Shown: one piece after another, positions 33,310 through 55,277 of the stretch
Position numbering within the stretch: position 1 is the stretch's first letter
Layout of the letters: each line of letters starts with the position of its first letter
Position numbers and translations under genes: made by a program
Source of the DNA: Moniliella sp. 'wahieum'
Taxonomy: Eukaryota
NCBI GenBank assembly: GCA_003971905.1
Contig: RSEE01000111.1
Coordinates: 62,001-126,000 of the forward strand
Direction: 5' to 3'
Length of the DNA stretch: 64,000 bases
The notes under the pieces: generated by a model
The model's database searches: none
What the model was told of the DNA's origin: nothing
What the model saw: only the letters and a program-made list of their open reading frames with translations

Positions 33310-36287
33310 GATGGCCACCATGGATGACCCCCGCCTCGCACCCGCCCCCTCTCCGCCGCTCCGATCGGGAAATGGGTCGACGGGAACGGGGCCACCACCT
33401 CGATCGCCGCTGTTGCCTGGTTGCTTGTCCCCCGGTGCTTGTCCCGCCATGCTTGGGCCCTGCCCGCCGTCCGTCGTGATGGCGTGTGTGTGCGCCTCTG
33501 CCTCTGCCTCTGCCTCCGCCTCCGCCTCCGTCACCACGCCCCCTTGGCGCTCCAGCCCGCCCCGCCATGCTCAACCCCCCGCCCGCCGTGCCGGACGACC
33601 GCCGCTCGGTGCGCCGCCCGGCGCCCTTGTCCTTGTCCCCCCACGCAGCGCGCAGCGCGCACCTCACCGCGCCCACCCCCCCGCTCGTCCGAGTTTCCCC
33701 TCTCGCCCATCTCGCCTCTTGACCGCACCCCGCACGCGCGGCTCGGATCCGGATTCGACCCCCTCTGCCCCTGGACGCTGCCCGACACGCCCGACACGCC
33801 CCTCGACCCACGCAGCCCCTCCCTCGGCTGCCCGCCCGCCGGCGGCGTCGCTGTTGGCGCACCCACGGGCGTTGGTGTTGGTATCGGGCTTGGGCTTGGC
33901 TTCCTCCCCACCCTCCGGCCCCAGGACCTGGACCGTCGCCTGGATCGGGACCGTGCGGACCATCGTGCGCCCACCTCGGCGGCGCCTTTCTTCCCCGCAC
34001 CCCACTTATCCTCCCCCCCACACCCACACCCACACCCACCCACAAGCACGAAGCGGAAACGTCCGAGGCAACCGCACGCGAGATTCACTTACTCCGCACG
34101 GCATCTGTGCCGGACTTCCACGCTGGCCGTGCCAGTCCCGCCGCCACACGGTTGCCCGCCTCTTCCCAGCACGCTTCGCACTTTGGCCTGGCACGGTTCC
34201 CTCCGCACACGGTGCCTCGTGGTCTAGGTTCGCCCTTGATCAACCCGCCCCGTTCGGCACCTTTTCACCACGGCATTTTCCCCCTCTTTGCCTTCCCTCC
34301 CTTCCTCCTCCTTCCCCCGCCTACCTCCTCCCCCTCGCTCCCCATCCGCGCCGACTTGCACTTCAAGCCGTTTGGCGCACATGCGTCCCCGCACCTGCTG
34401 AGCCACCCAAGCCTCCTTGGCCATCCCAGTCACCCGAACCATGCGAGCCACCTCACCAACCCGAGTAACCCGAGCAACCTAAGCAACCAGAGTAACCTAA
34501 GCAACCTAAGCAACCCGAGTAACCTAAACAACCTGAACAATCCGAGTAACCTCAGCAATCCGAGCAACCTCAGCAACCTCAGTACCGATCCACTCGAATC
34601 ATCCCACCTACCCCAACCGCCTGTGCTCCTACGCCTCCTCGCCGAAATGGAAGTGGACTCGCCCACGCCCACGCCACTCCCTTCCCACCCCCTACTACGA
34701 GAGACGACGACCGCGCCAGGGACGGAACGCTGGGCCGCTGCACCCTTGTCCGTATCTTATCTTTTGGTCCTGTGTGGGCAGCCCAAGTGGGCAAGGAGGA
34801 AACCGTGTTGTTTTCACGCCAACAGGATATGGTACGTCCCCCCCCCCTCCCCCTATCGCGCCGTACACGTAACCACTTGAATTGGCATGGTCAGCCGTTC
34901 TAACTCTTCTTCTTTTCCAGCTCATCTTTGGTGGTCGGAACGGGTTCAACCCGCGCCATCCACTTGGCTTTGTGCGCACGTTGCACAGCTTTGAGCGATG
35001 GGAAAAGATTGTGGATACGGGAAACGTAGGAGCGTTCCGGTTCCAGCGGGGCGACTGGTTTTGTGACTTGTGTGGGGAAAAAATGTGGCGGTGGCGCTTG
35101 TCGTGTCGGAAATGCAAGACGGAGCATGCGGCAACGCGGTTGCAGGATCGGAACCAGATTGGGGTCAGCTTGACCCCGGCCGCACTGGCAACTGCTTGGG
35201 AACGGGTCAAACGGACGGAACAGGCCATGTTGTCCGCTACTCTCTCGGCTCTTCACACTATCCCTTCCCTTCCCTTGTCTTTGTCTTGTCCTTGCCCTTG
35301 CCCCTGCCCAGCCCGGCCGTTTTCTACTCCACCGCTGGCTCAGACGACCGACGTCCCCCCGTCCCACCCGTCCCATCCGTCCCATCCGTCCCATCCGTCC
35401 CATCCGTCCCATCCGTCACTTGCTTCTCTCCCCCCTCGCCCGGGACGGGCTCCCGGGCTGGGCATGCCATCCGGGGTACTATCTCCTTTGGCACTTCGTG
35501 CGTTCGCCTGCGCCATTGCTCCAACCCGTTTCGTCACGCTGTACCCTTCGCCGCTGGCCGATGTAGGATACGGACCGGAGCCCAGTCGTCGTCCGAGCTT
35601 TGTCCCGAGCCCAAGCCCTACCCTTGGCCCCATCCCCACGGCACCTGCTACGCCCCTGGCCCAGACGGACCTCGCCGCCCACCCATCTCCCACCCCAACC
35701 CAGCACGACAGCACCAACGGGCCAACAGGACCAACGGGACTAACGGGACTAACGGGACCAATGTGACCAACGGGGCCAACGGGGCTGATGCCCCTACCAC
35801 CCCAGCGGCGTCCCTCCCCACCAACCCGTTCTTCCACCCCACGCCAACCTCCACCTCGCACGTGACCGTAGCCGCGCCTTCGAACGTCAATCCGTCCTCG
35901 CATCCCAGCCCGAATCTGAATCTGATCTGAGTCTGAGCCCGACCTGGGTCTAAGTCCCACCTGTGTCTGAGCCCGAACTTGGGTCTGAGTCCCAACCTCA
36001 ACGCGAATGCGAACCTGAATCCGAATCCGAACCCGAACCCGAATCTGAACCCGAATCTGAATCCGAGTCTGAATGCGACTGCGACCGCCACCGTGATGGC
36101 GACGACGCTGGATCCGGACCTGGCTTACGTCCCGGACCACCGAGCCACACCACCCGCCTCCGCACTACGTTCTCACCTCAGCCCGTTGACCCAGATGTCC
36201 CCCCTCCTCGCTCACCTTCCTCTCCGCCCGAGCGTGCGTGATACGCTTCACCCTACCAAGGGTTTGACTCCTAAGTTCAGCGTGTAG
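33310..36287 (+). CDS. Low-complexity protein with a RanBP2-type zinc finger
   Basis: FRFQRGDWFCDLCGEKMWRWRLSCRKC (~35035-35115; W-x-C-x2-C-x10-C-x2-C). Probable intron ~34832(GTACGT)-34920(CAG). Pro/Ser/Asn-rich arms. Start and end approximate; frameshifted. Confidence 0.65.
34455..34582 (+). repeat. 9-bp coding microrepeat (SNP/SNL tripeptides)
   Basis: Translates as NPSNPSNLSNQSNLSNLSNPSNLNNLNNPSNLSNPSNLSNLS. Confidence 0.85.
35361..35417 (+). repeat. 9-bp tandem repeat (ccatccgtc)n encoding PSH repeats
   Basis: About 6 tandem units seen directly. Confidence 0.9.
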
Positions 36288-36403
36288 CTGGGATTCTCCT
36301 GCCCCCCTGACTTTCTGAACATGTTCTCTTTTTTACCGTCCCAGTAATCGTATGCGACACTGACACCAGTACATATTGTTGGCCTTTTAGCTGATGCGTC
36401 CTA

Positions 36404-36457
36404 TCATTGACAGAGCCTAAGGCTGGGACAGGGGGAATGCTACGCCTAAACCGAACC
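36404..36457 (+). repeat. 54-bp dispersed motif, copy 1 (TIR-like)
   Basis: TCATTGACAGAGCCTAAGGCTGGGACAGGGGGAATGCTACGCCTAAACCGAACC; 4 mismatches to the reverse complement of 42231-42284. Confidence 0.9.
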
Positions 36458-36839
36458 GTTCATCTGCGGGGGTTACCTGGAAGCGCCCCCAGGTTAAAAG
36501 TAGCTTATTCAGTACACCATCGATCATCTGCATCATCAATAGTATCAGACGCAGATCACGTGCATCATGTATTGTTGCCACGTCACCCACCGGTGCCTTG
36601 CCTGATCGTAGATGTGAAAGCTAGACCCTAGAGTTGCCGCGCGCAGGCCAGCAGGCCACGTGTACATTCCTGTCCCACTGCTTGCTCTGTCCTCTTCGCC
36701 ACCACCTCTCCTTCCCCCTTCCCTTCTTCTCGCTCACCTCGTTACTTGATTCCTACTCGCTGATCGTCTGTGGTTTAGAGACTAGGTGTCTCCAGGTCAG
36801 AGCCTTCCACGCGTCGCTACAGTATGCGTCATGTGCATC

Positions 36840-38244
36840 ATGCAATGATCAATTGATCTCGGTTGTAGAATGGATAAGCACTTGGTCCAGCCCCTTGCCT
36901 CTCAGTTGGGGGACGAGCATTCCATGTCACCAGCAGCTGTGGCCAAATGAATAGCCGTGGTTGTTTCCCCCTTGGTGCATCCAGCATTGACCCACCCGCA
37001 ACTCCCACATTTGCGAAGACGTAGCCTGTTCCTGTCCATACACGTGTGTAAAAGGTAAGCACCACTGGTGGAGGCTGAACTCGATCGCCTTTGACCACAA
37101 ATGTTGTTGTTCTGGATAGATGACCAATGACATACCGAGGATGGATTGCGCTTGAAAAGTTGAACCCAAAAGTAGATATCTTCTTTGTACCCCGAACGAG
37201 GAAACTCTTGACCCTTGTACCAATCCCTGTACGCTTGAATCTGCTCCCTGGTGAATCGTATGTAAATATCATGAAGGGTACACCAAAGCGAGAAGCAGCG
37301 TAGCATTTCTCCAGACCTTATCGTTGTCGTGCACCCAATATGAGAGGTTGTAGTCTTCATGTTCATAATCCCACGACACTCATGAGAATGGGAATTTAAG
37401 TCAGCCTCAAGTTACTGTTACACAAATATGAATGTACAGTACGCACCGTAATGGTACAAGGGCTGCTTCGCCCTTTTCGAGAACTGAAAAATGACCCATA
37501 TAAGGTACAAATGGCCACCGTCACTCCGAAAACGAGGAGTCGAACGAAGGCTGCTGGTTGACTGCTTCCTTCGTACCCTTGATCAAGAATCGCGTCTTAT
37601 CGTGCTCCACAGTCGAATGTACGCCAACTGGTGACGCTATTACAGGCCAAATATTGGTTAATATTCCTGTGAGATAGTTCGACGGACCAGAGGAAGAGCG
37701 TACTTACCGGCATACCCCCGCTACCACAGGCAAATCAGCAACCATAAGAATGAACGAAGATCCCGGAACAGTGAAGTCGATACGGGGTGCAGCCACTTGG
37801 TCCAAGGACGTCGCTGCGGTGCCCCCTGCGCCACGTATTGCAATCCGGTGAGAACACTCGGTATACCAACGCCAATACTATGTTGATAATGAGAGATCGC
37901 TTGGTCTTGGCATGGTTGGTTGAGTTGGTTGACAGAATGGCCAAAATCTCTCTAAACAAAATCACCTCGGTGCAGGATAACCCGGTTAGAGACCACTGTT
38001 CGATTGGCAACGATATATCGCACCAATCAATGGTCGTGCACGGTCTGAGTGTTACCGCCGATAGCATTTTGACATTGGAATATTTCCAGATGTTGGTCGT
38101 CATGATCGTGCTTGACACAATCGAGTAAAGCAGTACTCGGTACGCATAGATGCCCGCCCTTCTTGAGTTGCACAGGAGGAGAAGACGACCAAACATGCTC
38201 AAGACACCGAGTGTACCTACGATGCCGGAATATGCCGTTACCAT
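36840..38244 (-). CDS. STE3: STE3-type (Pra) mating pheromone receptor, 7TM GPCR; introns plus frameshifts in this assembly
   Basis: STE3 hallmarks in order from ATG 38244: WCDIS; FREILAI..KRSLIINIVL; (shifted) GIPSVLTGLQYVAQGHR-SDVLGPSGCTP; intron 37707(GTAAGT)-37667(CAG); NIWPVI; FVRLLVFGV; probable second intron from ~37445; SWDYEHEDY; FMIFTY(G)FTREQIQAYRDWY. C-terminal end approximate. Confidence 0.88.
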
Positions 38245-38717
38245 GGCTGGTGTTTTGAGGGGGATCGAAAGACTGAGTTGGAAAGAAGAGGTGAAAATGA
38301 TATAAAAGAATGTGGGAGGACCACGTATATATGTACTTCGGGATTACTAAAATACTATAATGCTGCTATATATAGGATCGGACGATCCGGCAAAACGATA
38401 TGGGGAAGATTATCGATACTAACGGTCGGTGTTGTCACGCGTGACTCATTCATTAATCATGCAGAAACACTTTTACTTACACATATTGACGGAAAGACTT
38501 CACTCTTGAGAAGCTTGAAGCTTGAAAGCACACAAAAGGAGGCAAACGCATATATTGCCTTTGGGCCTCTCCCATACAGGCTGCCACAAGGCCGGGTCGC
38601 GTGCACAGAGAAATGAGCGTAGCCGAAGCAACACCCCCCAGAACGGGTTTAGCTGTAACAGTCAGTTTAATCGAAGGAACAATACCGGAAGGGGCGATGG
38701 GTGATACAAAAAAGGAC

Positions 38718-38726
38718 ACAAAGGGA
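38718..38726 (+). promoter_or_regulatory. Pheromone response element ACAAAGGGA (Prf1/HMG-type) in the STE3-pheromone 1 divergent promoter
   Basis: Exact match to the Ustilago maydis PRE consensus; 300 bp upstream of the pheromone ATG. Confidence 0.7.
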
Positions 38727-38766
38727 AAATGCTGCAAAAGGGGGGAGACCAAAAAAGCCGCACCTG

Positions 38767-39500
38767 CCGATACACCGCCTTCCAGCAACATACATAATAT
38801 CGGTACGTCAGCAAAACTGGCGTGTAAAAGGAGCCGCGGGGGTTCCGGCTAAAGAGATAGGAAACAGACGATAGTATACTCTGCTAGGGACAGTGCACTG
38901 CTATTTAAGAACCCATTTTCCACAATGCCGGACGCACATCACCACTACCCTCACCCACTCTTTCTCTCCTCTTCAGCCTCTGCCGTCGCGCATCAGCACA
39001 CCGTATCTTCCATCAAGATGTCTCTTTTCACCATGTTCACCATCCCTACCAACACGATGGCGGCCGAGCCTCTTGGCCCTGACCAGGACCCGAGTATGTA
39101 ACGCAGCTCCGTTTGGTCTGATTCGACCGCCCCAACCGTATGTTGCTAACACTGTGCTGTTTGCACGCCCAGCTGGTTCCATGACTGGCTGTGTCATTGC
39201 CTAGAGGGGCTTTCTGGTAAAGCCCTCCCATGCCGGTCAATCCCCAATCCTCCCTTCACTGCTGTTAGTCAGCTTAGGCATATCAGCAGTTCTCCTTGGC
39301 ATCCCTATAGTTGATGCTGATCTCTGCGCCTGTTTGGCCCGTTGAGATGCTGAGAGGCGTGCACCATGATGTGTTTGTCTTTCAGTCTCTTCTAGCGCGG
39401 CCCCGGTATTTGATCACTCTTCTCTTTTACCTCTTATACCCCCGGACCCCCCCCCCCCCCCCCCCCCACCTATAGGAGAGAGCAGACACTTTGTGTGTTG
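38767..39500 (+). repeat. Pheromone cassette repeat, copy 1 (promoter, gene, 3' region, poly-C)
   Basis: High identity to ~42612-43345 and ~49959-50615; TATTTAAG at 38902; C21 tract at 39447-39467. Confidence 0.92.
39018..39204 (+). CDS. mfa: Lipopeptide mating pheromone precursor, copy 1: MSLFTMFTIPTNTMAAEPLGPDQDPTGSMTGCVIA (35 aa, CAAX = CVIA)
   Basis: Exon 39018-39093, intron 39094-39172 (GTATGT...GCTAAC...CAG), exon 39173-39204. Size, N-terminus and C-terminal CAAX are typical of basidiomycete pheromones; divergent from STE3. Confidence 0.93.
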
Positions 39501-39713
39501 CATTGATCAATGGTCCGTGAGCAACAGAGAGAGGCCTGGAAATATCCCTGTTTCCCAGTAAATATTAAGGAAGAGCGTTTGCACGGAATCGACACACCGA
39601 CTACTAAGGTTTGACCTAACCTCAATATTTAATGCCCTCTTACCCCCTACTGTGGCGTCACCCCCTAGAGAGGCGTTGTCAGCGCATCTCTCCCTGCCCG
39701 CCTTTCTTGTCCA

Positions 39714-39769
39714 AGTCCTGGCCGTTTAGTCCTGGCCGTTTAGTCCTGGCCGTTTAGTCCTGGCCATTT
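39714..39769. repeat. 14-bp tandem repeat (agtcctggccgttt) x4
   Basis: Seen directly. Confidence 0.9.
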
Positions 39770-39789
39770 CCAGCCAATTGATTGAATAA

Positions 39790-40745
39790 TACATGCAACC
39801 TCTCTCGTCTCTCCACTTAGCTGCCTCCTCTTCATCATCCAGCCTCTCGTCCTCCAGAGAGTTCCATGCGCCCAGTGGCGCGAGCCTTCCTTCAGCCGGT
39901 CAATTCCCGGGCCGTACCACAGCATATCGCGTGGGTTCCTTTCCAGCCACGTCGACAGCCGCCCCTGGACAGCCTCAGCTCTGGCAGTGTTTGTTCTCCA
40001 CTGACTCTACCCGTCCCTAAGTCCCAGAGGCTTCAGACACGTTACTATACGGCCCAAGCCGGTGCATAGGCAGCCTTGCCACACGTGCAGCCGCCTCAGC
40101 TTCATACTCAAAGGCTTCTCCTCGTCCCTAGCTCCACTCGGATCCACCAAGTAGCCCAATCCCGAAACTTCCTCGAGTCGTCTTTCTGTCACCTAAGGAA
40201 TTGTACCCCCAAAACGTGGGCGATCCCCTTGGCGGGTCCCGCCTGTGACAGGGTCGGCGTAATTCGCGTTGAATGGATCGAGCCCACCGCATCCTCGGTA
40301 CCACCTATCAGCCCTGATGCATTTTTCTCCACATCTCCGCCTTGCTGTACGACTCCGCCTGTTGTGCCACGGATACTCTTTTCACCACTGCTCCCCTTTG
40401 ATCCAGTAGTAAAGTCCCCATAGGATGGAAGGCATTATATAACACACTCATCCACCTATCGAGCGTAAACGCTAGGTCATTGGAGGATTATCCGAACGGA
40501 GCTAGGGCCAGGGCAGAGACGCGTCGGGTGGTGATCGGTCTTGCAAAATAAGCATTGTGGGCACAGTCGGCAGTCTTGTGGCCAGGGCGACGGCATGGCG
40601 GCACAACGCTGGTCGTGGATTGAAGGTACACTACACCGTGTGCGAGTGTGGTCGTTGGTGCGGCAATGAGGGCACCGCCAACAGTGAGCACGGTAGGGGG
40701 CATTTTAAGGTAGTGGACGGGCGCGTCGACGCGACCCTGTGTCAT
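39790..40745 (-). pseudogene. Decayed CCHC zinc-knuckle gene, copy A
   Basis: Reverse-complement similarity to 41065-41600. ATG 40745 (MTQGRVDAP..); knuckle remnant CRRPGHKTADC. Confidence 0.7.
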
Positions 40746-40759
40746 ACACAGCGGATTTC

Positions 40760-40900
40760 AAAAAGAGGTAAAAATATCAGCGATGTTCGGGAGCTGACAT
40801 CGGCGACGTGTTTGCATGGTTTTGAGGAAAATGATGTCAGCGACATCGAAAAAGAGGTCGTTGATATCAGCGACGGCGCAAAAGAGGTCGTTGATGTCAA
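40760..40900. repeat. ~30-bp degenerate tandem repeat (aaaagaggtcgttgatatcagcgac)
   Basis: Several imperfect units in the spacer between the head-to-head zinc-knuckle copies A and B. Confidence 0.75.
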
Positions 40901-40904
40901 TGAA

Positions 40905-40943
40905 GTAGCGTCCCCCTGTCCCAGCCTTAAGCTCTGTCAATGA
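40905..40943 (-). repeat. 54-bp motif, copy 2 (partial, 39 bp)
   Basis: Reverse complement reads TCATTGACAGAGCTTAAGGCTGGGACAGGGGGACGCTAC. Confidence 0.85.
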
Positions 40944-41064
40944 AATGGACATGGTCTAGAGATCTTTTATTACCATACGCGAGGGAGGTGCAAGAAATCC
41001 GCCAACAACCCTACTGCCCCCCCCCACCTGCACGTGACGGGGGGCTGCGCCAACGATCGGGCAT

Positions 41065-42097
41065 ATGACAGAGTCGCGTCGACGCGTCCCTCCACTCCCT
41101 TAAAATGCCCCCTACCCGTACTCACCGCCGGTGCCCCCATTGCGGCACCAACGACCACACTCACGCACAGTGTTCCTTCAATCCACGCCGAGAGTTGTGC
41201 TGCCACTGCCGTCGCCATGGCCACAAGGCTGCCGACTGCGGTAGTTTCGGGTTTGGGCTATTTGATGGATCCGAGCCGAGGAGAAGCCTTTGGGCGTGAA
41301 GCCGAGGCGTCCGCACGCGCGGAAAGGCTGTGTATGCGCCGGATTGGGGGTAGTAACGTAACTGAAGCCTACGGAGCTTAGGGACGGGTAGATGCTGTGG
41401 AGGAAAGAGACTGTCAGGGCTGAAGCTGGGCGGGAGCTGTGCACGTAGCTGTGAAAGGAACCCACGCGATATGCTGTGGTATGCGGAACCGACCCCGCTG
41501 AAGGAAGGCTCGCGCGACTGAGCAGATGGAGAGCTGGAGGACGAGGTTGGATAGTGAAGATGAGACAGCTAAGTGGAGACGATAGGTTGCCTGCATTACT
41601 CAATCAGTTGGCCGGAACCGTCAGGAGTTGGACAAGAAAGGTGGGAAGGGACGAGAATGGAAGGTGGGATAAAGGATCCCCACTGATTGAGGATGCTGAC
41701 TGTTGGCTGACCCTGTTTTGGTAACCCCCTCCTGTCTAAGCCTCACCGCACTGGCATATAGATGTTGACAGAGCGAAGCAGACGAAGCTGCTACAGAGTG
41801 CCACTTGGGAGCACTCATCGCGATCCTATGGATCAGCTGCAACGCAGCCTTCAGACAAGGCGTGAAGGCAATGTTCAAGCAACATCTGAATTGAAGGAAA
41901 GGAGACAGGAGAGAGAGAAGGGAGATGAAGCGAGCAGGGCGCGCGCGCCCTGCGAGCGGAACTCTTCCGCCCGGGTAAGTGAGCGTCACCGATCCACCGA
42001 GAGGGCCGTGCAAGGGAACCCCAGCACTACCCTCCAACAGAAGCAAGCGAAGACTGCGAAGGCACTAAGAATGTCATCCGATAGCACTTCCTCGTAA
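41065..42097 (+). pseudogene. CCHC zinc-knuckle gene, copy B (most complete), interrupted by stops and frameshifts
   Basis: Starts MTESRRRVPP. Two perfect C-x2-C-x4-H-x4-C knuckles, CPHCGTNDHTHAQC and CCHCRRHGHKAADC (in ORF 41105-41299). Ends MSSDSTSS*. Confidence 0.78.
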
Positions 42098-42230
42098 ATG
42101 ATAATGTCTTTTCGTGATCCGCTGTGTAATATGCCCGATCGTTGGCGTAGCCAGCCTCACCTACCCGTCACGTGCAGGTCGGCGAGCAATAGGGTTGTGG
42201 CGGATTCTTGTTCACCCTCTCTGATATAGA

Positions 42231-42284
42231 GGTTCGGTTTAGACGTAGCGTTCCCCCTGTCCCAGCCTTAAGCTCTGGCAATGA
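42231..42284 (-). repeat. 54-bp motif, copy 3
   Basis: Reverse complement reads TCATTGCCAGAGCTTAAGGCTGGGACAGGGGGAACGCTACGTCTAAACCGAACC. Confidence 0.9.
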
Positions 42285-42394
42285 TATGGATTCGAAAGTA
42301 GTAGAGATCGCAGTAACCTCTCTTCAAGCTGCAAGCAGTTGGCTTCATTGACCCTGTGTGAAACATAGGTCAGGTGGAACAGCGAGCAATGTAC

Positions 42395-42403
42395 ACAAAG
42401 GGA
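42395..42403 (+). promoter_or_regulatory. Pheromone response element ACAAAGGGA upstream of pheromone copy 2
   Basis: Exact match to the PRE consensus. Confidence 0.65.
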
Positions 42404-42865
42404 ATTATTTTTCGACCCAACAGCAGCCACAACAGTCATATTGAAGGAAGTATACTATGTAGCTGAAAACCTTGGATTGGCGTATGAAAATATGGCTCAA
42501 GACCTTCACTGCCAGTGGGGGTGAACGAGATTCGCTCCACCCACCCCGAACAGAGAGGGCGGACCTTCCGAAAGAGATTTGGAACTTCCGAAAGAGGGAG
42601 AGTCGACTTGCCGATACACCCTGCGTTCCAGCAACGTGGACATCGGTACGTCACAGCAAACCTGGCGTGTAAAAGGAGCCGCGGGGGTTCCGGCTCAAGA
42701 TAGGAAACAGAGGATAGTATACTCTGCTATTAGGGACAGTGCACTGCTATTTAAGAACTCATTTTCCGCAATGCCGGACGCACATCACCACTACCCTCAC
42801 CCACCTCTTGTCTCTCCTCTTCAGCCTCTGCCGACGCGCATCAGCACACCTTAACTTCCATCAAG

Positions 42866-43054
42866 ATGTCTCTTTTCACCATGTTCACCATCCCTACCAA
42901 CACGATGGCGGCCGAGCCTATTGGCCCTGACCAGGACCCGAGTATGTAACGCAGCTCCGTTTGGTCTGATTCGACTGCCCCCCGACCGTATGTTGCTAAC
43001 ACTGTGCTGTTTGCACGCCCAGCTGGTTCCATGACTGGCTGTGTCATTGCCTAG
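42866..43054 (+). CDS. mfa: Pheromone precursor, copy 2: MSLFTMFTIPTNTMAAEPIGPDQDPTGSMTGCVIA
   Basis: Exons 42866-42941 and 43023-43054; 81-nt GT-AG intron with a GCTAAC branch site; intact CAAX and stop. Confidence 0.93.
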
Positions 43055-43340
43055 AGGGGCTTTCTGGTAAGCCCTCCCCATGCCGGTCAATCCCCAATCC
43101 TCTCTTCACTGCTGTTAGTCAGCTTAGGCATATCAGCAGTTCTTCTTGGCATCCCTACGGTTGATGCTGATCTCTGCGCCTGTTTGGCCCGCTGAGATGC
43201 TGAGAGGCGTGCACCATGATGTGTTTGTCTTCAGTCTCTTCTAGCGCGGCCCAGGTTTTGATCACTTCTCTTTTACCTCATATATTGGACCCCCCCCCCC
43301 CCCCCCCCCCCCACCTATAGGAGAAAGCAGACAGTTGGTG

Positions 43341-43511
43341 TGTTGTTATAGACCCGAGAGAAGGTAGTTGGTACTAGTGTATTGCATTAGTTGCACATGA
43401 GCTACAGAGGATAGAGAATATTCCTGCCCGCCAGGAAGGAATATTGCATGGAACCAACCAGAAGGTTCCGGACTTGGGCTACCGCCGCCACTACACCAGT
43501 GTGGCGTCACA
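43341..43511 (-). repeat. Possible 3' LTR of the copia element
   Basis: TG...CA-bounded ~170-bp segment just beyond the RNase H stop, next to a short purine run (GGAGA) on the minus strand. Weak similarity to 39496-39661 (shared tgtggcgtcac). No matching 5' LTR found. Confidence 0.3.
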
Positions 43512-43547
43512 TCTCCACAAGCCCAAGGACGGTACCGACGGTTTTCC

Positions 43548-46500
43548 TCAAGCGCTCGAGCTCTTCAATCCCCACCAAAACCTATAGGCACCGGAGTGTC
43601 CAGGTGGGGGGAGATCAGGAATAGGACCCAATTCGCGGTCACGCAGCGGCTCCAGGGCCATGTATGCCCGGCTCTTGCTGTGGAGGTCGGAGACGTTGTC
43701 CACACCTTTTAAGGACACAGGAGTAACAATCCCTGCTCGGTTGCTCTCACGTATATAGGTGTAGGAGCGGGCAACGTGGCGCGTCCCTTTGGCAGAACCC
43801 CAATTATTCGCGCAGGCGACTGCTGCCACGGATGAGTCGCGCCGAAGCGCGAAAGGAATACCTGCGGGAAAAGCACCAAGCTCCGCTAACAGTTCACGCA
43901 GCGCCATAGCATAAGCCACACCCTCACTCGCTGCCACATACTCCGAGTCGCCCGTGCTGCGTCCCACCACGCGCTGCTTGGCCGAGCGCCAGCCAACCAA
44001 GGCTCCAAAAACGTAGACTGCCAGGCCAGAGGTGGCCTTGCTGCCCCACCTTTCGTTCTTGTAGCTACTGTCGGTAAAAAGTTCCAGCGGTGGGCCAAGG
44101 GTAGGGTGGAGTCGGAGCGCTAGACCAGCATTGTGACCCAGATAGCCCCCTACCCCGGCCAAAGCCGTCCAGTGTTGGGGACCAGGGTCAGCGCAGAATT
44201 GTCCAAGGGAGCGCACAGCAAAAGCAATGTCCGGCGGGTGCAGGACGCGATCCATCCTAGTGTTCCCACTTCACTGGCGAAGCGATGTGTCTCCTCCTCC
44301 GGACACTGTCGCTCGCCTTCAGCGCGGGGGACAAGCTGAGTCCCCGTAGGAAGGGCTGACGATAAGGTGGCTCGCCCTCACGTCCAAATCTTCACGTGCT
44401 CGCCTTAATATAGTCCTCCTGAGAGACATGGCACTCTCCAGGTCGGAAGCGAAACGCACACTCAGAAAGTATGCTAACGGACCGCCGTCCTTGACATCCA
44501 CATGTTGGCGTAGGTCCCATAAGAAGTTGTAGTATGCCTCAGCAGATGAGGCAGCGACGCAAGGATCATCCACCATATACAGAGGATGATCACTTCTTCA
44601 CCGCGTACACGGGTAAATACGCACGGGTCGGCGATAGTGGAGGTGCAGCCGATGAGTTGGAGCAACCCGGTAAGTTTCTCATACCATCTCCGCGAGCTCT
44701 GCTTCAGGCCATACGGGGCTTTCTTGAGTAGCCACACCTTACCATCTTCCCCGCCGAAGCCCTTTGGCGGTTCCATGCACACGTATATTCGCTTGGCTGG
44801 ATGTCGGCATAAAAGAAAGCGAACACCACATCGCAAGTGAAAACGGGTCAGTCATGACGCAGAGCAAGAACGATAACGGTTAGCAGTGCCATGAAGCGTA
44901 CAGTGGCGGAAGATTACGTAGTAGCTGGATCATAGTCAAGGCCCGGGCGTTGAAGGAAGCCCTGGCCTACCCACCGGGCGCGCCGCCGAACTAGTCAACC
45001 GGCCTCGGTTTTGTAATGGCAGACAAAGCGAACCCTCGACACCATGGCATCACTCCCTTTCGCCGTCACTCCCTTTCGCCGTCACTCCCTTTCGCCGGCC
45101 GCTGCACGCTCTCCCAAACCCCCCCGGTCTTCCAGATTCTTCACCTCATCCCCGAAAGCCTGCTCCCACTCGCTTGCATCCGCACCTCGTCGGGCTTCAT
45201 ACTCATTGCGGGGATCCACCAACAGAGGAGGGACATCCCCACCATTGTCCCCACCATTGTCCCCACCATTGCCCCCACCACTTCCCACTGTGGTCACAGC
45301 CGCGGCAATGGGATGGGACGGTTGATATGCTTCGTCCCTAGTTTTGCCCTGATAGGGCCCAAAAGTTTGGACCAAACTGATTGCGCAAATCAGCCTGTAG
45401 GGCCGCCTGCCGTCTCGGGCGTTCATTGTGGTCCGGTACCGCAGCATTCGGCGCGGTTGGCTCCAACTCCGCAATCGTGGCTGATGGAATCAACGTGCGC
45501 CTGGGGCACAGGTCCAGGTAGTTGGTGTCATCACCCCATCGTAACATATCCCTCACCCAGGTGAACCGCCACTGCGATACTTCCCACTCGCCCACTAGCC
45601 ACTTGCTTTGGCCCACGTCGTATCCAAGCGAGGAGCACCACGGGACGACAAGCGATTCTCCCGATCCTCTTCGTTCACGAGCGCATGGGCCACTGCACCA
45701 AAGCGATGAAGGTACGCTGGCGCAGCTGGTTTCTCCAGGTAACGCGTGGCAGGATTCGGAGGGCCAAGCTTGCCGATACTCATGTTGTGTATATATGCTG
45801 CGGCCTCAATGGCGAGCGGCCAAAGGTCCACATTCATCCGCCATGCCCGCATCTTGCAGTAGGGCTCGCGTAGTCGTGACAAGTTCTTGTTGGACACGCT
45901 CCACTTTGCCATTGCTGGCGCTAGCATTACACACCGTCTGGATGTGGCGAATCCCCATTTCAGAAAAGAAGGAAGCAAGAAGAAGCAAACTCAGTACCTT
46001 GGTCCGAATGGACGACAGATACCCTGTACCCCTTGTGCTGGAAACGTCGCTCCTCTTGGACGATGTGATTCCGGAGGAAGTAGCAACCTTGTCCTTTCCC
46101 GCCGCAGGATAAACGGAGCAGTACCTGGTGTGATCGTCCAAGATCATGAGCATGACAGTGGCGCCAAAAGCGTCTGACAGGGGGAACGTTGTCATCACGT
46201 CAACATGTAGCTTGTAGAGCGGTTGAGGGGAAGTCACGGGTTCGGCTACCCGATGGTGGGGAGCGTGGCGAGCTTTCTCGGTGGCACACACGGTACAGAA
46301 CCATTTGCTTTCCGCGCGGCGGACAACTGCGGCCGGTACCTCACAACTGTGTCCTTTGGAGGATTCAACCAGGCGGCCGAGTCCTATATGCCCTAAGCTC
46401 CTATGAGCGTCCATAACGCGCTCAAGATCGCCCTTCGAGGGTGTGGCCCGTGCAGAAGACGCGCTTGCTGTCGCCACGATTGGCGTCGGGGCCAACACGT

Positions 46501-47476
46501 GTGGCTGGGCTAAAAAAGTGGGAGTCGAGCACGACCTTGGCTGGCGGCGGCGTGTGCTGGTGTAAGTTGCGCATCGCCGCCCTGGGCGCGTCAGGTTCCC
46601 ACGGCAGGCCGACATCGCTCCGGGCGGCCGTGGTAGGTGGTGGAGTCTAAAGTGGGGCTGCTTGGGCTGCGCTGACCGGACTGGTTTCAAGGTTTCACAC
46701 AGGTCGACGTGCAACCAGTTGCACGCGCGGCCGGCAATCAACGTCACTAGTCACTAGTCACTAGTCACTGCTATGCCTGAAGTTGCCTCGCCAAGTGATC
46801 ATCGATCACTCGACAGAAGCGGGTCTACCAACCCTTCCACTAGACGGCACTCTGGCATGTAAAGGGATACAACTTCAAGCTTCATCGTTTACGCGTTAGG
46901 CCTTAGGGCGCGTACCCAGACGCGAACATCACCGATGTGGTTGCACAGCACAAGTTCACCATTTGCCAGCTCCGCCTTTTCCCGCGTCAGTGGGCCGCAC
47001 GTTCACCACCGGCCATCCGAGTCATTACGCAGAAGTGTCCATGGATCCTGAGAGATGCGTGCCTGCTTGAAATAGCCTCAGATTGTAGACGCCAACAGGG
47101 GGCCAGAAAGGCTGTCTTTCAGGGCCCGGTGAGGGGACGTGAGCCCGTCCCTGTCCAACATGTTCTCAACAGGACTAACTGCCCCCTCAAAATCAGCCTG
47201 GTAATTGTACCCACAGTCTCAGAGCTTGCCTTTTCCAAACAGGAGGATACTTGTCTTGATTTTCCTATCCAATATTCGCTCGACAGATCCAAACAAGTCT
47301 TGAACATACGACGACCAGGGACCATAAGATGTGGCCTTGGCTGTGAGCTTGGGAAGACTTGACCAGCCACCGCTGCGATTCACAGCAGTTTCAACCGCGG
47401 CGTTGAACGTAGGAAGCGAATCTTGGGATACGACCGTAGACAAAGGTGTCACGACGCTGGGGTTGAACGTTGACAA
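43548..47476 (-). mobile_element. Degenerate Ty1/copia LTR retrotransposon (gag fragment, integrase, RT, RNase H)
   Basis: Gag-like LPKLTAKATSYGPWSSYVQDLF. Pre-integrase HRSLGH..CTVC. Integrase LHVDV..ILDDHTRY..NGKVER. RT WVGQGFLQRPGLDY, MEPPKGF..LKKAPYGLKQSSRRW, ADPCVF and VDD. RNase H PDIAFAV..FTDSSY..WRSAKQRVVGRSTGDSEYVA. The IN-RT-RH order defines copia; no protease recognised. Confidence 0.93.
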
Positions 47477-47570
47477 CTTACACGCGTGATTACCTGATGC
47501 ACCTGCAGTGCTCCCACTCAGTTGTGTTTTTGTTCATGTCAGGTTCTCTCTAAGTTGCGTCCACTGCATA

Positions 47571-47624
47571 TCATTGACAGAGCTTAAGGCTGGGACAGGG
47601 GAGTCGCTACGTCTAAACCGAACC
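47571..47624 (+). repeat. 54-bp motif, copy 4
   Basis: TCATTGACAGAGCTTAAGGCTGGGACAGGGGAGTCGCTACGTCTAAACCGAACC, ~95 bp upstream of the copia gag-like ORF. Confidence 0.9.
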
Positions 47625-47637
47625 TGTGAAACATATA

Positions 47638-48506
47638 GAACGAGGAAGTGCTATCCGATGATATACTCTTAGTGCCTTCGCAGCCTCCACTTGCTTCTGT
47701 TGGAGGGTAGTGAGCTTCACGGGCCCTCAGTGGATCGGTGACGCTCGCTTAACCGGTTGAAAGAGTTCCGCTCGCAGGCCGCGCACGCCTTGCTCGCTCC
47801 ATCTCCCTTCTCTCTCTCCTGTCTCCATCCCTTCAGACGGTGCTTGATTCCTTCATGCCTTGTCTGAAGGCCGCTTTGCAGCTGATCCATAGGATAAGTC
47901 GCACTCTAGCAGTTTCGTCTGCTTCGCTCTGTCACCATCTATATGCCACTGCGATGTGGCTTAGACAGGAAGGGGTTACCAAAAAGGAGTCAATCAATAG
48001 TCAGCATCCTCGATCAATGGGAATCCTTTATCCCACCTTCCATTCTCGTCCCTTCCCGCCTTTCCTGTCGAACTCCTGACTGTTTCCAGCCAATTGATTG
48101 AGTAATACAGGAAACCTTTCGTCTCCACTTAGCTCCTTGCCAAGCGTGCGGCCGCTTCGGCTTCACGGCCAAAGGCTATCCAGCAAATAGCCAAAGCCCG
48201 AAACTACCGTGAGTCGTTCTGCACGTAAGGGATTGTACCCCACCAGCCTGGGTGAGCCTCCTGGCAGGGCCTCCCTGTACGCCTGTGACAGGGTTATCAT
48301 CGTAATTCACGTTTCATGGATCGGGCCTACCACCTCTTCCATCCCCTCCCTTGGCCACCGAGTCCCTTTGGGTTATCCCCCCCCCTCTCAATTGCTCTCC
48401 ACATCTCCTCCTTGCTCTATCACTCCTCCTTGCCAGGGTTACTCTTTGCACCACCGCTCCCCTTGTAAGGTATGGGAGAGGGGACGCGTCGACGCGACTC
48501 TGTCAT
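47638..48506 (-). pseudogene. Zinc-knuckle gene family, copy C (knuckles deleted)
   Basis: ATG 48506 gives MTESRRRVP; the 3' half matches the reverse complement of ~41570-42095. Confidence 0.7.
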
Positions 48507-48521
48507 ATGCCCGATCATTAA

Positions 48522-49413
48522 TCACGAGGAAGTGCTATCGGATGACATCATTTTTTGTCCCTTCGCAGCCTCCGTTTGCATCTGTTGGGGTGGTAGTGTT
48601 AGGCCTCCCCTGCACCCCTCAGTGAATCGGTGACGCTCTTGCTTAGCCGGTCGAAAGAGTTCCGAAAGAGTTCCGCTCGCAGGGCCCGCGCGCCCTGCTC
48701 GCTCCATCTCCCTTCTCTCTCTCCTGCCTTCTTTCCTTCAGATGCTTGTAGACTTGTGGTCACCCCTTTGCCTTCACGCCTGCAGTGTCTGAAGGCTGCT
48801 TTGCAGCTCATTGGTAGGATCTTGAGTGCTCCCAAGTCGCACTCTATAGCAGCTTCGTCTGCTTCGCTCTGTCAACATCTACGTATACGCAGCCTTGCCA
48901 CGCGTGCAGCCGCCTCGGCTTCACACCCAAAGGCTTCTCCTAGCTCGGATAGCCCAGGCTCAAAACTACCGTGAGCCGTCTTTCACGTAAGGGACTGTAC
49001 CCCACCAACCTGAGTGAGCCCCCTGGCAGGGCCCGCCTGCGACAGGGTCGTCGTAATTCACGGTACATGGATCGAGCCCGCCACCTCTGGATCATCGATC
49101 ATCCTTACTCCATCCTTCCACCAATCCACTTTGTCCTCCCCTCTCTTCTTGTCCTCCCCCCTCTTCTTGTCCTTCCCCCCCCACCTTATTTTTGTCGCAA
49201 AGACCCCAATTGCTTTCCACATCTCCTCCTTGCTCCACCGCCCCGCGGCAGTCTTTAGCCAGGTCGACGGCCGTGGGGGCACAAACGTGGGAGTGGATTG
49301 AAGGGGCACCGTGTGCCAGTGTGGTCGTTGGTGCCGCAATGGGGGCTCCGACGGTGAGTACGGGTAGGGGCATTTGAAGTGGGTGGAGGGACGCGTCGAC
49401 GCGACTCTGTCTT
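48522..49413 (-). pseudogene. Zinc-knuckle gene family, copy D (ATG changed to AAG), head-to-tail with copy C and divergent from pheromone copy 3
   Basis: KTESRRRVPPPTSNAPTRTHRRSPHCGTNDHTGTRCPFNP...; ends MMSSDSTSS* at 48522. Confidence 0.72.
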
Positions 49414-49737
49414 ATGCCCGATCGTTGGTTGGCGCAGCCAGTCCCACCCACCCGTCACGTGGTCCGCGGGCAGTAGGGTTGCACATTTCTTTTGCCTGCT
49501 CGAACATGGAACTAAGAGATTGGCGTAGCCAGCCCCGCGGAGCAGTAGGGTTGCACATCAGGGAGCAGTAGGGTTGCACACTTTCTTTGCACCCTCGCAT
49601 ATGGAAAGTAACCGGTAACCGGTAACCTCTCTTCAAGTTTCAAGCTTCATTAAGCTTCAAGCTTCAAGCTTCAAGCTTCATTGGCTTCATTAAACCCTGT
49701 GTGAAACATAGGTCAGGTGGAACAGCGAGCAATGTAC

Positions 49738-49746
49738 ACAAAGGGA
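49738..49746 (+). promoter_or_regulatory. Pheromone response element ACAAAGGGA upstream of pheromone copy 3
   Basis: Exact match to the PRE consensus. Confidence 0.65.
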
Positions 49747-50217
49747 ATTATTTTTCGACCCAACAGCAGCCAACAGTCATATTGAAGGAAGTATATGTAG
49801 CTGAAAACCTTGGATTGGCGTATGAAAATATGGCTCAAGGCCTTCACTGCCAGTGGGGGTGAACGCGGTGAACGAGATTCGCTCCACCCACCCCGAACAG
49901 AAAGGGCGGACCTTCCGAAAGAGATTTGGAACTTCCGAAAGAGGGAGAGTCGACTTGCCGATACACCCTGCGTTCCAGCAACGTGGACATCGGTACGTCA
50001 CAGCAAACCTGGCGTGTAAAAGGAGCCGCGGGGGTTCCGGCTCAAGAGATAGGAACAGAGGATAGTATACTCTGCTATTAGGGACAGTGCACTGCTATTT
50101 AAGAACTCATTTTCCACAATGCCGGACGCACATCACCACTACCCTCACCCACTCTTGTCTCTCCTCTTCAGCCTCTGCCGACGCGCATCATCACACCTTA
50201 CCTTAACTTCCATCAAG

Positions 50218-50406
50218 ATGTCTCTTTTCACCATGTTCACCATCCCTACCAACACGATGGCGGCCGAGCCTATTGGCCCTGACCAGGACCCGAGTATGTA
50301 ACGCAGCTCCGTTTGGTCTGATTCGACTGCCCCCCGACCGTATGTTACTAACACTGTGCTGTTTGCACGCCCAGCTGGTTCCATGACTGGCTGTGTCATT
50401 GCCTAG
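50218..50406 (+). CDS. mfa: Pheromone precursor, copy 3: MSLFTMFTIPTNTMAAEPIGPDQDPTGSMTGCVIA
   Basis: Exons 50218-50293 and 50375-50406; 81-nt intron with a canonical TACTAAC branch point; intact CAAX. Confidence 0.93.
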
Positions 50407-51025
50407 AGGGGCTTTCTGGTAAAGCCCTCCCAATGCCACGGCAGGTCAATCCCCAATCCTCCTTCACTGCTGTTAGTCAGCTTAGGCATATCAGCAGTTC
50501 TCTCTTGGCATCCCTATAGTTGATGCTCATGTCTGCGCCTGTTTGGCCCGCTGAGATGCTGAGAGGCATGCACCATGATGTGTTTGTCTTTCAGTCTCTT
50601 CTAGCGCGGCCCTGGTACTTCATCTATCCATTTCCTCATCCCTTTTCCTTTGTTTCTGCGCGTTGCTACAGTGAGGGTGATCCAATGGAGGGTGTTTGCG
50701 ATAGTTATAGACGGGGTGAGGATTGTGATGCAGGGGTGGATGCGCTGTTGGTGTGCGATTGAGAGTCGGCGGTTGGCATTGCGAGTTGAGATGTTCGGTC
50801 TGAGAGAAAAAGGCGATGGTGGTGTTTTGAGCTGGCAAAGGCGCACTGCCATGTGGCACGCTGCCGGCGTCGGCACACGCGTGTGGCCTGCTGACGTAAG
50901 GGGTGGACGCGTGCGGGTGTTGGCTGTGCTGGTCTGCCTGGGACGCGCCACGCATTTCGCCATCGCCATCGCCACCGCCATCGCCACCGACTTCACCATC
51001 GTCTCTGCCATCCCCGCCGGGTTCC

Positions 51026-54000
51026 ATGTCGCGTCGGCACCAGACGCGTCCTCCCTCCCCCCGCCGCAGCTGGGCCTGGGCGCCGCGCCGATGCGCACGC
51101 CCGTCGCCTCCTCTGCCCCCCGTCTCCCGTCGCGCGCTGCCTCCGCGAGCCTCGGCCGCCGTGCACGCGGCAGCCTGGTCGGCCACACGCGCAGCGCCAG
51201 CGGCGCCAGCACCAGCACCAACCTCAGCGCCAGCCGTGGCATGCGCTTCCCGCGGTTGTCCGCCCTCGACCTGCCCCCATCCTCCCCCGTGGCTGACGCA
51301 GCGGCCGAGCTGTCGAGCGTGCTGGGCGTCGTGTCCTTTGCCGCGGACCGCGTCCTGCGCGAGTACCTCGCGTTTGACCCCCACTTCCATCTCTCCGCTC
51401 TTTGGCGCCAGTGGCTCGCGTTTGCCACTGTCAAGCAGACCCAGCTCTCCCCACTGCCGACTTTTTCTTCGAGTTTGTCGACCTGCCACGTCTCGCCAAC
51501 ATCTGGGCCCTGCCTTCTCACGCGCTTCCTCCGGCTGCCGCGACGGCTGTCCACAAGGCCAATTGTGCCACACTGCTCCATTTTGCCTGGCAGCTTCCTG
51601 AACTCCCAAGCCTGATCCAGAGCTCGATCCAGACGGCTCGGCTGCCGCCAGAGAGGCACAGTACTTTGACCCAGACCTGCTCGATGCACCGCTCCAGGTG
51701 CGGGACGATAGCCAACTTGCCATCACTCCCCGCCACTTTCTTCTTCACGTGATTCCAGCTCATTGGCCCTCCATCGATGCCCCAATTGTCAACGCCTACT
51801 TTTTCCTCCGCATTCGTTACACACCTCTCTCCCAGATCGTCCATGCGCTCCGAGGGTTGGACGAGAGGGTAATGACCCATCACCAAACGCGGGCTACCTG
51901 CCAAGCTGCTCTGGTTCAGGTTGGCAAGTCTTCAACTGTAGAACGTGACTGGGCTCAGCTGGTCCAAGCCGGTCGCCTCTCCACCGAAGAGCAAGCCAAT
52001 GCGGTCAATGAGGTCCTAGCGCTGATCAACGACTGGGTCGAAGCTGTGGAGGATATCCTGGTTCAGTACCTCGCTGCTCCCGCCTCCTCTTCTGATGCTA
52101 AAGTTGGCCAATTGGCGGCCGAGGAGATTACAGCAATTCTCCCGGTCGCACATGGGGCCGAGGAGTTGACGCTTCTCGTGCGCGAATTTTTGGAGCATCC
52201 CGAGTACCTCGACGCCCCCCCAGCCAACGAGCCTAGCTTCACCCTACCCAGCCGCTCTGTTCTTCGATCGGGACTCTCCTCGGCGCACTCTCGCCCGCCA
52301 CCTTCTTCAAGACGAGAGGTCCGGGCATCGTTGCCCCCGAACCTTCACCGCCAGAGATCCACCTCAGTCTCTTTTACCTTGCCCCACGTTCGGCCGTCAT
52401 CCGTTGCCCTCACTTCGCGTATTGGTGAGCGCATTCTGTTTGCCTCGGATGATGATGAGTTCACTTCGGCCCGGGCGGAGCAGCCGGATGCCAACGAGAC
52501 AGGTCTCAGTCGATCTCAGCGTCGCGCCATCCTCGAAGACTTGTCGAGCGACGAGGAAGAATCTGAGGTGGAGCAAGCCCAGTCAGACGCACCCAGTTCG
52601 GATGCCGAGCAAGCTCTGCCTGAAGCGACCCAGGACCCGGATGCACCTCATCCCGATATGGAGTCGGCATCGGAAATGTCCTCTGTTGCAGAAGACGTCG
52701 ACTCGGGCTCGGCTCTGCGTATTCCACCCCGACCCAAGGTCCCTCGTCCCCCGTCAGAGAAAGAGAGCCGCCGCGCCTGTCCAGGAGGAAGAGGCTGAAC
52801 CTGCCCCCATGCCCGAGAGCGACTACGACTATATCCCCCGTGAACAGCCTCAGGAGCGGGAGGCACGACCTAGCGTGGTACTCCCGCGCCGGCCACGGGC
52901 AGAACAAGGCGTGGCAAGACAACCCGAGGAGAGGCTGGCCTTTGGGCCCAACAATGAGCTTATTCGTACTACTGCGCCTCGTCCCCGCACCGGGCTCGTG
53001 AGTCGCCATCGAGGCCGAGGAGAAGAAAATGTGCAAGATCAAGAGCAGGGAAGAGACTCGTTTGATTCCCAAGGGGTGTGGCCCTCACCCTTTACCAAAC
53101 GCCGACTTACCAATGTCGAAAGTTCCACCCCCCTCGCCTCGCCCCAGCGTCGCCGTAAGAATCTGACCCAACCCGCAAAGAAGGCATCCAAAAGGCAGGA
53201 ACGCAGATTCGAGCGTTCTGATTCTGGTTCACGAGACGAGTCAGAGCAGCAGCCCCGGCCGAGTCATCACAACAGCCTCAAGAAGAAGAGTCCGAAAGGC
53301 TTGCGCCCCAGCCACCGCATCGAACCCGCCCTACATCCGCATCGGCAAGTACTGCCACTGGCCAAGTCAAAGCTTCAGGCCGAAGGAGCCAGCAGAGAGA
53401 TGCCGAACTGGTCCAAAGGTTATCGCTTGAGCAACGGAGGCAAGTGCTTCTCAGTATGATGGACGAGTCAGATGTGTTGGAGTTCGATTCCCAGCCTTTA
53501 TCCGAATCCCAAGGATCAATTGGGAACCAAGGGCGCACTGGGGCCACAAGATCTGCTGAGATGGCCCTAGGGTCGCAAGCCTCCCCCGAGCCTCAACAGG
53601 ATGAGGAGGTGCGTCCTGCACCGGCACCTCCAGCACTCCCAGACTTGGGGAACATCGAGAACGATGGAGGCGCGCTAGAGTTTACCACTCTCGATATAGA
53701 ATTTCCGCCGCTTGAGGACGCCCCCGAGCCGCCTGGAGAACAGGAGGACCAGCCATTGCCTGTTTCGCCCCCTCCACGGGACACTCCTCTTGTCGATTCA
53801 GGGCGTCGTGCGGCGACGCGTCCTGTGGCACCCGTCACAGAAGAGACGGAAGGAGGTTTCGAAGAATGAATTTGCTGAGAGGGTGCAGCTGGAACACACG
53901 CATCAATTGGGAGAGGGAAGGGGCCGAGCAGCTGCACTCGGGGGGAGGCTGCCCCATGCCTCAAAGATTATGACCCCCCAAGAAATGCAGAGGAATATCC

Positions 54001-55277
54001 GACACCTCATGGAAGCTAAGGAACTTGCTGACCGCGGACAGAGGTGGGCCTATGTTCCCCCCACTCGTACCGATCCTCCGCGGCCCAAGGTTTCCATCCG
54101 CCAGGCACCCCCGACAGCCTCCACGCGTCCCCCGCATCTTGCTCCGCGGCGCGATCCCCCCGCTGGGTTCCGATCGATGGCAGGCCTGGGCCGTCAGAGG
54201 TGGACGGAGAAGGAGTCGGATACGTTGGTCAAGCGAGTGGCGTGGATCAGCTATTGGCTCGCCAGGGATGGTGGAGCATCGAGAGCAATCCCAACAATGG
54301 GAGAGAAGCGGATTTGGGGGCTGGTGCGCTACTACCACGGCACCAACGGCGTTTATGACCACTCTCTCGTCCGTTTTGAACAGGGCACACGCTTCCGCGA
54401 TCGCGTTCGCACGCTGCTCGATGAGCAAATGAGCCGAGGACTGCCAGAACCGTGGTGGGTCAAGCGCTTTATGGGCTACAGTGAACACGTACGTCCTCTT
54501 TCCTTCAGTTTTTCATTTGGATATGACCTAACCCTCCCACCACCAGCTACTTTTTAAGCAGGTCCGTCTTCAACAACGTGAGCGCCAGCGCGCCTGGGAC
54601 CTGCAGCACGGCGCTGACGTGTCGGATGAGGAGCTGCGCATGTCCTCCGACTCGGAGGCGGAGCGCATCCCTCTTGATGAGCTTACCCCGGAGCAGAGGC
54701 AGCTCCTTGAAATGCCGAGCTGGTCTGGGCGCGCGACTCGGAACCCCACCCCAAGCGGGAGCTTCTCCGGCTCTCTGCGGTTCATAACCAAGCCCAGGCC
54801 GGGATCCGGGTAATGGAGACGTTGGAAGAGCGTCGGCGGATCCTCCGGGGAAATGAGTCAGAAAACGAAGATCGTGGTTGGTTCTCTGAACTTGAAGAAA
54901 CCGACGGCGCAGATGGCTCCGAAGAGGAACAGGATGAGTTGGACGAAGGCAGTCAGGGGCAGCGGGAACAGGACCAGGACCAAGACCAAGATCAAGATCC
55001 TGATCAAGAAAAATTCCATGAAGAGCAAGACATGGAGGCAGACCAAGCCCCCGCTCGTCTTGGAACGGATCATTCCCAACGAAGTGATAGTCATGCCCGA
55101 CCCCGAGCCTCTTCTTCCCCTCCCCTGAACCTCCCACGACTGGTATGCAGCTTCGCTCCAGGGCCAACCCTTCTCAGTCGTCCCATCCGTCCCAGCTCAT
55201 CCCGGCCGCGGCCTCGGCCCCGGCCACGCCCAGCCACCGATGAGCCTCTTTCCAAGCGCCTGCGTCGGCGGGTTTAA
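51026..55277 (+). CDS. Large nuclear protein with a C-terminal telobox-like Myb domain (TRF2/Taz1/Tbf1-like), frameshifted
   Basis: RQRWTEKESDTLVKRV...IWGLVRYYHGTNGVYDHSLVRFEQGTRFRDRVRTLL (~54192-54420) resembles the fungal telobox pattern RxWTxEExxAL..WxxILxxxGxxG..LxxR..LKDKARNL. Helical N-terminal region and acidic disordered linker. Intron ~54489(GTACGT)-54561. Basic NLS-like end KRLRRRV*. Confidence 0.6.

Follow-up and report, generated by a model that had tools for sequence, protein, structure and literature searches.

A likely pheromone/receptor mating locus with triplicated pheromone genes in a fungus placed close to Tilletiaria

Pheromone and receptor genes

The candidate mating locus described here occupies positions 36300-50620 of a 64,000-nucleotide stretch of fungal DNA (contig RSEE01000111.1, positions 62,001 to 126,000 of the forward strand; hereafter the window). 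It holds a single STE3-type pheromone receptor gene transcribed divergently from a short pheromone precursor gene, two further copies of the latter, candidate pheromone response elements (PREs), and the remains of mobile elements. The mating genes, and the sequences duplicated with them, are as follows:

38244 down to about 36900, minus strand: STE3-type pheromone receptor gene (pra-like); start codon at 38244, 3' end approximate
38245-39017 (773 bp), no strand: divergent promoter region between the receptor and pheromone gene 1, with a PRE at 38718-38726 (plus strand)
39018-39204, plus strand: pheromone gene 1; exons 39018-39093 and 39173-39204, intron of 79 nt; 35 aa, ending in CVIA
42322-43345, plus strand: duplicated pheromone unit 2, with a PRE at 42395-42403 and pheromone gene 2
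42866-43054, plus strand: pheromone gene 2; exons 42866-42941 and 43023-43054, intron of 81 nt; 35 aa, ending in CVIA
49662-50624, plus strand: duplicated pheromone unit 3, with a PRE at 49738-49746 and pheromone gene 3
50218-50406, plus strand: pheromone gene 3; exons 50218-50293 and 50375-50406, intron of 81 nt; 35 aa, ending in CVIA

A first-pass annotation, made from the sequence alone, had claimed a CAAX pheromone gene with two further copies, and three such genes are indeed present, all intron-bearing and on the plus strand. Their introns share a GTATGT donor, a TGCTAAC or TACTAAC branch site (TGCTAAC in gene 1) and a CAG acceptor, and the product of copy 1 differs from those of copies 2 and 3 by one residue (Leu/Ile, position 19). 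Between copies 1 and 2 a single difference falls in the 108 coding bases, as against 15 in 233 aligned upstream and 10 in 209 downstream, plus gaps; this closer likeness of the coding part than of its flanks would fit selection and/or gene conversion acting on the pheromone coding sequence. The three duplicated units, of about 0.7-1.0 kb, are direct repeats, and units 2 and 3 share 94.6% identity over 963 bp. Open reading frame (ORF) ends fitting a loose CAAX pattern number 15 in the window, of which three are the pheromone copies and none of the rest resembles them in sequence; no other pheromone type was detected in the window, and the C-terminal nine residues found no match in a full-text literature search. 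Runs of about 20-25 C follow units 1 and 2, at about 39445-39470 and 43285-43312, and are missing after unit 3. Homopolymer tracts of this type are difficult for long-read base calling.

The receptor ATG (38244) and that of pheromone gene 1 (39018) are separated by 773 bp, in good agreement with the divergent pair and gap of about 770 bp proposed at first pass. The promoter common to both genes contains ACAAAGGGA at 38718, and exact copies of this motif occur at only two other sites in the 64 kb, 42395 and 49738; all three are on the plus strand, within the island, and lie 300, 471 and 480 bp upstream of the start codons of pheromone genes 1, 2 and 3, respectively. Candidate PREs, of the Prf1 type, are present upstream of each pheromone gene, as had been claimed: three exact sites where 0.31 were expected (two of 100 shuffles reach three). 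According to the Figure 3 legend of PMC3248468, ACAAAGGGA marks the P/R (pheromone/receptor) loci of Ustilaginales.

The receptor model is secure for its first 170 codons or so (38244-37738); short introns and frame breaks interrupt the second half. Pfam scans took in 248 ORFs from across the window (at least 110 aa), 114 smaller ones to the right of 50.6 kb, and a selection of 44 ORFs. The STE3 profile (PF02076) matched the stop-to-stop ORF at 37738-38343 on the minus strand (E 1.3e-6, profile positions 4-143 of 292), and this was the sole STE3 match among the 12 local ORFs and the 248 longer ones. When the receptor fragment was searched with phmmer against 1.84 billion representatives, two proteins matched. 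One, P0001, is a repetitive protein matched in eight stretches, and was treated as spurious; the only real relative was P0002, a 184-aa fragment 32% identical to the receptor (E 2.5e-14). Used in turn as a query, P0002 retrieved two Trametes receptors carrying PF02076 (E 9e-5 and 6.5e-4), and hhalign comparison of a profile of the window sequence plus P0002 with this Trametes STE3 pair returned 96.5% probability (E 9e-10), in an alignment which takes in the WCDI and QGHR..GC.P motifs. A search of PDB sequences with the receptor plus P0002 profile gave no match at E up to 1.

Alignment with a purpose-written protein-to-DNA aligner, which permits frame shifts and GT-AG introns, gave a score of 273 for the receptor against P0002, where the highest null scores were 105 (among 78 other segments of the window) and 118 (among 30 shuffled proteins). 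The P0002-guided alignment shifts frame near 37884/37866, 37825 and 37782, and with these shifts the match improves greatly over helix 4, the QGHR motif and the GC.P loop; the conserved motifs carry on across the breaks without stop codons. With the Trametes receptors as guides, the whole gene reached 205 and 223, the null maxima being 190 and 191. The STE3-motif receptor of the first-pass annotation therefore stands, on profile, profile-profile and frameshift-aware evidence. Third-position GC content (GC3) is 0.61 in the receptor, compared with 0.48 GC for the gene overall, and periodicity is clear in one frame over 38250-37800; together these constitute a coding signal.

The gene model is uncertain downstream of about 37700. 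In helix 5, readings with and without a 41-nt intron (about 37707-37667) both give plausible sequence, and the second half offers motif-level matches to helix 6 (near 37550-37490) and to a SWD..H extracellular loop (37379-37360). Two introns were proposed by the aligner: one at 37622-37551 (72 nt) with a weak donor, and one at 37446-37379 (68 nt) which is plausible as judged from its GTGCGT donor, CTGAC branch site and in-frame stops. On these alignments, membership of the seven-helix STE3 family holds for helices 1-5, in a receptor which by the same comparisons is very diverged from other STE3 proteins. A tblastn search of the window with P0002-P0004 found one receptor locus only.

The repeat-laden island

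The first-pass annotation also described a lower-GC, repeat-laden island, with a drop in GC relative to both flanks. GC content is 0.542 across 36300-50620, compared with 0.628 to the left (1-36299) and 0.61 to the right (50621-55000). In the windowed view that had been suggested, 1-kb bins lie mostly between 0.58 and 0.72 across the window and fall to 0.48-0.59 at about 36-51 kb. As GC returns to 0.536 over 55001-64000, high GC on the right extends for no more than about 4.4 kb. Of the island bases, 47.5% lie in dispersed repeats, as opposed to 0.6% in the left flank and 0.0% in the right. Given the GC drop and this concentration of repeats, the island is real, with a narrow high-GC flank on its right. 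The repeats that fill it between the pheromone units are:

39500-42320, no strand: repeat block, internally inverted, of dispersed-element fragments with ORFs resembling CCHC knuckles; inverted match to 47560-49480
43551-46750, minus strand: Ty1/copia-type retrotransposon remnant; reverse transcriptase present, integrase and RNase H regions degenerate
47560-49660, no strand: repeat block, the inverted partner of 39500-42320, 73-94% identical in pieces

The transposon debris noted at first pass is most evident in the copia-type reverse transcriptase at 44477-44851 on the minus strand (RVT_2; 38.0 bits against a cut-off of 31.6, E 1.8e-9). As the integrase match (rve) is weak (E 0.045), and no direct repeats that could represent a long terminal repeat (LTR) pair bracket 43551-46750, we regard this element as a remnant rather than an intact copy. 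The fragments in the two inverted blocks belong to a different family. Their repeated ORFs (40477-40704 and 49258-49557, minus strand; 41069-41299, plus strand) carry a C-x2-C-x4-H-x4-C pattern, like that of retroviral gag zinc knuckles; Pfam gave no zf-CCHC match for these ORFs at E up to 1.

A further dispersed element, 50-90 bp long and with 79-93% identity, is present in both orientations, in the island at 36402-36490, 40902-40949, 42230-42291 and 47567-47625, and outside it at 29251-29344; it may represent the end of a mobile element. At the left island edge, a microsatellite with a 6/12-nt period (CCGAAT/CTGAAT-like units) spans 35870-36080, within overlapping Pro/Ser/Asn-rich ORFs. The second low-GC stretch, at 55001-64000, is devoid of dispersed repeats, of ORFs above about 150 aa and of Pfam matches; it might be part of a larger region around the mating-type locus (MAT).

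Interpretation of the locus

P/R loci that combine mfa-type pheromone genes with a pra/STE3 receptor are textbook features of Ustilaginomycotina. To place the source organism, we used RPN9, a proteasome gene situated about 16.7 kb from the locus. Its best named relatives among the matches listed are all from Ustilaginomycotina (45-51% identity). A quick maximum-likelihood tree was built from the window sequence and 36 of the 120 matches listed, 37 rows in all; in it the window sequence groups with P0005, its closest database relative, and then with Tilletiaria anomala (SH-aLRT 99), inside Ustilaginomycotina. This single-gene tree, in which the branch is long, places the organism within that subphylum, close to Tilletiaria. 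One STE3-type receptor, three CAAX pheromone copies, PREs, and transposon remnants in a low-GC, repeat-rich island together make it likely that the region is a basidiomycete P/R ('a'-type) mating locus of such a fungus, which is the identity first proposed for it.

The locus fits the known P/R kind, with traits of its own: three intron-bearing pheromone copies in direct repeat, an unusually diverged receptor, and retroelement debris within the locus. As in the a locus of Ustilago maydis and other Ustilaginales, described in passages of PMC3248468 and PMC7766764, a STE3-type receptor adjoins short CAAX precursor genes; promoter ACAAAGGGA elements are also shared, as is the subphylum, by the RPN9 tree. 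Unlike the U. maydis locus, the window carries three copies of one intron-bearing pheromone gene, a receptor so diverged that single-sequence searches yield one relative only, and retroelement remnants within the locus. P/R loci have been surveyed in 16 Ustilaginomycotina genomes, Tilletiaria included (PMC7766764), and the portion of that survey concerning Exobasidium vaccinii reports duplicated pheromone precursor and receptor genes at MAT. Pheromone gene duplication is seen in this other member of the subphylum, of Exobasidiomycetes grade, whereas the window has one receptor locus only. Several identical pheromone genes amid repeats are described, in parts of PMC3236058, for red yeasts (Sporidiobolales) and Cryptococcus neoformans. 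Near-identical copies, duplicated flanks, and coding sequences more alike than their flanks are common to those systems and the window, but there the copies are described from inverted repeats, whereas the units in the window are direct and only the transposon fragments inverted. Further, red-yeast A1 precursors are described with tandem peptide repeats, while the precursor in the window encodes a single peptide.

By analogy with the established workings of mfa/pra in U. maydis and of yeast a-factor, the precursors would gain a farnesyl group at the CVIA cysteine, undergo trimming, carboxymethylation and N-terminal cleavage, and be exported. The receptor is expected to respond to the pheromone of the other allele, and not to that of its own locus. 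Pheromone binding would then activate a G protein and a MAP kinase cascade, with an HMG-box factor as the target; this factor, acting at ACAAAGGGA sites, may raise expression of both pheromone and receptor. Selection and/or gene conversion would hold the three pheromone copies alike, and the low GC and repeat load may reflect reduced recombination around an allele-specific region. Both features are compatible with 36300-50620 being the idiomorphic part of MAT, as suggested in the first-pass annotation, without demonstrating allele specificity.

Several results weigh against this reading of the locus. The STE3 match scores 28.3 bits, 0.9 short of the curated cut-off of 29.2, on a fragment of 169-202 aa, and neither the 11 other local ORFs nor five second-half ORFs rescanned at E up to 0.05 gave a STE3 match, so that Pfam does not recognise the second half in pieces. 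Aligned alone to the two Trametes receptors, the second half is weak, scoring 78 (null maximum 85) and 100 (null maximum 89). A word-index search for longer relatives of the first exon produced no significant hit among 792 candidates. Among look-alikes in the ESM Atlas, the top clusters are unnamed or of cAMP-receptor type; a STE3 cluster ranked 17th, with a score of 0.88, and serves as no more than a lead. In addition, ACAAAGGGA is not enriched when up to one mismatch is allowed (14 sites against 11.65 expected), and the PREs of units 2 and 3 lie in duplicated sequence, so only two of the three exact sites are independent. The analysis covers a single mating type, and its sequence alone cannot separate true frameshift mutations in the receptor from assembly errors.

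Bipolar mushrooms in which P/R polymorphism has been lost, and homothallic species, provide precedents for working pheromone and receptor genes which do not determine mating type. Were this the case here, all strains would share one allele, and the island would be a transposon-rich, AT-drifted intergenic neighbourhood. Just one allele has been seen, and low GC recurs without repeats at 55-64 kb, so that low GC alone is not MAT-specific. Further, Tilletiaria anomala, the nearest named relative, has truncated bW/bE proteins, according to a passage in PMC7766764. Nevertheless, we consider this alternative unlikely, given that repeats are concentrated around the mating genes (47.5%, against at most 0.6% in the flanks), that receptor GC and GC3 are unusually low, and that the receptor has diverged from STE3 proteins to the extreme extent expected of old balanced alleles. 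The repeat pile-up and the low receptor GC and GC3 fit long-standing reduced recombination.

Also unlikely, in our assessment, is a relic P/R locus in an asexual or self-fertile lineage, with a receptor pseudogene in decay and only the pheromone genes still intact. The receptor has several frame changes within about 100 bp, a low Pfam STE3 score and a weak second half, and its GC of 0.48 is far below that of other window genes, all of which would suit decay. However, frame breaks of the same kind and density occur in essential-type genes of the window. RPN9 (19929-21163, minus strand), on which the aligner was first run with P0005 as guide, shows four frame changes (near 21097, 20972, 20838 and 20755; about 340 bp) and no introns, and frame correction raises its identity to P0005 from the 69-71% of the uninterrupted ORF to 86%. 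The AAA ATPase gene changes frame near 8960 on the minus strand: its Pfam AAA match leaves one frame at profile position 98 and resumes, within 4 nt, at position 97 in another. Single-base frame breaks, which the first-pass annotation did not note, run through the whole window, as would follow from frequent small indel errors in the assembly, and those in the receptor do not count as evidence for a pseudogene. Retention of motifs across these breaks and of GC3 periodicity, and of the same divergent sequence type in P0002, also argue against decay, and assembly error is the most likely source of the receptor frame breaks.

These observations account for the absence of complete ORFs at the locus, as remarked upon in the first-pass annotation, which can be traced to introns in the pheromone and receptor genes together with window-wide single-base frame breaks. 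This is a simpler explanation for the broken appearance of the genes than degeneration. Given the frequency of small indels, ORF-based annotation of this genome is unreliable, and calls of 'pseudogene' or 'no complete ORF' in it are suspect. The coordinates given here are for genes which automatic annotation is likely to miss, given the very small size and the splicing of the pheromone genes, and the strong divergence and frame breaks of the receptor.

If the region is a P/R locus as we propose, it marks the site encoding mating compatibility in a poorly studied relative of the smut fungi. A more speculative extension, which we put forward tentatively and regard as rather doubtful, is that the receptor and P0002 represent a deeply diverged STE3 lineage beyond the reach of ordinary searches, possibly a very old allele class kept trans-specifically in a little-studied Exobasidiomycetes branch near Tilletiaria. 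The island might then be the record of a long-standing arrest of recombination around triplicated, intron-bearing pheromone genes.

Surroundings of the locus

Outside the island, Pfam identified the following genes, all to its left:

4794-7779, minus strand: MDM31/32
8618-10103, minus strand: AAA ATPase
13022-14952, plus strand: transportin
19929-21218, minus strand: RPN9 (proteasome)
28118-28405, plus strand: NOP10 (H/ACA snoRNP) gene fragment (E 9.3e-12)

These differ from Rpn10 and CAF1, which are named as frequent P/R neighbours in the relevant passages of PMC7766764. The RanBP2 zinc-finger and Myb genes which the first-pass annotation placed in the flanks could not be substantiated, since at E up to 1 Pfam matched neither domain in ORFs of the flanks. 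Homeodomain and protein kinase domains were likewise not found among the scanned ORFs, in which frame breaks could mask some domains. As these ORFs included no homeodomain gene, the 64 kb give no hint of a fused bipolar locus. Rfam gave no match in the window at gathering thresholds, and a tRNA scan of the window found no genes.

An open frame of 1170 codons at 22619-26128 on the plus strand has no Pfam domain, and three overlapping frames, each of more than 330 codons, occupy 50604-51744. Long frames arise easily on both strands in GC-rich DNA, so ORF length alone is no evidence for a gene here. Finally, an inverted repeat of 143 bp (89% identical) links 36680-36821, just past the receptor 3' end, to 18967-19101, near RPN9.

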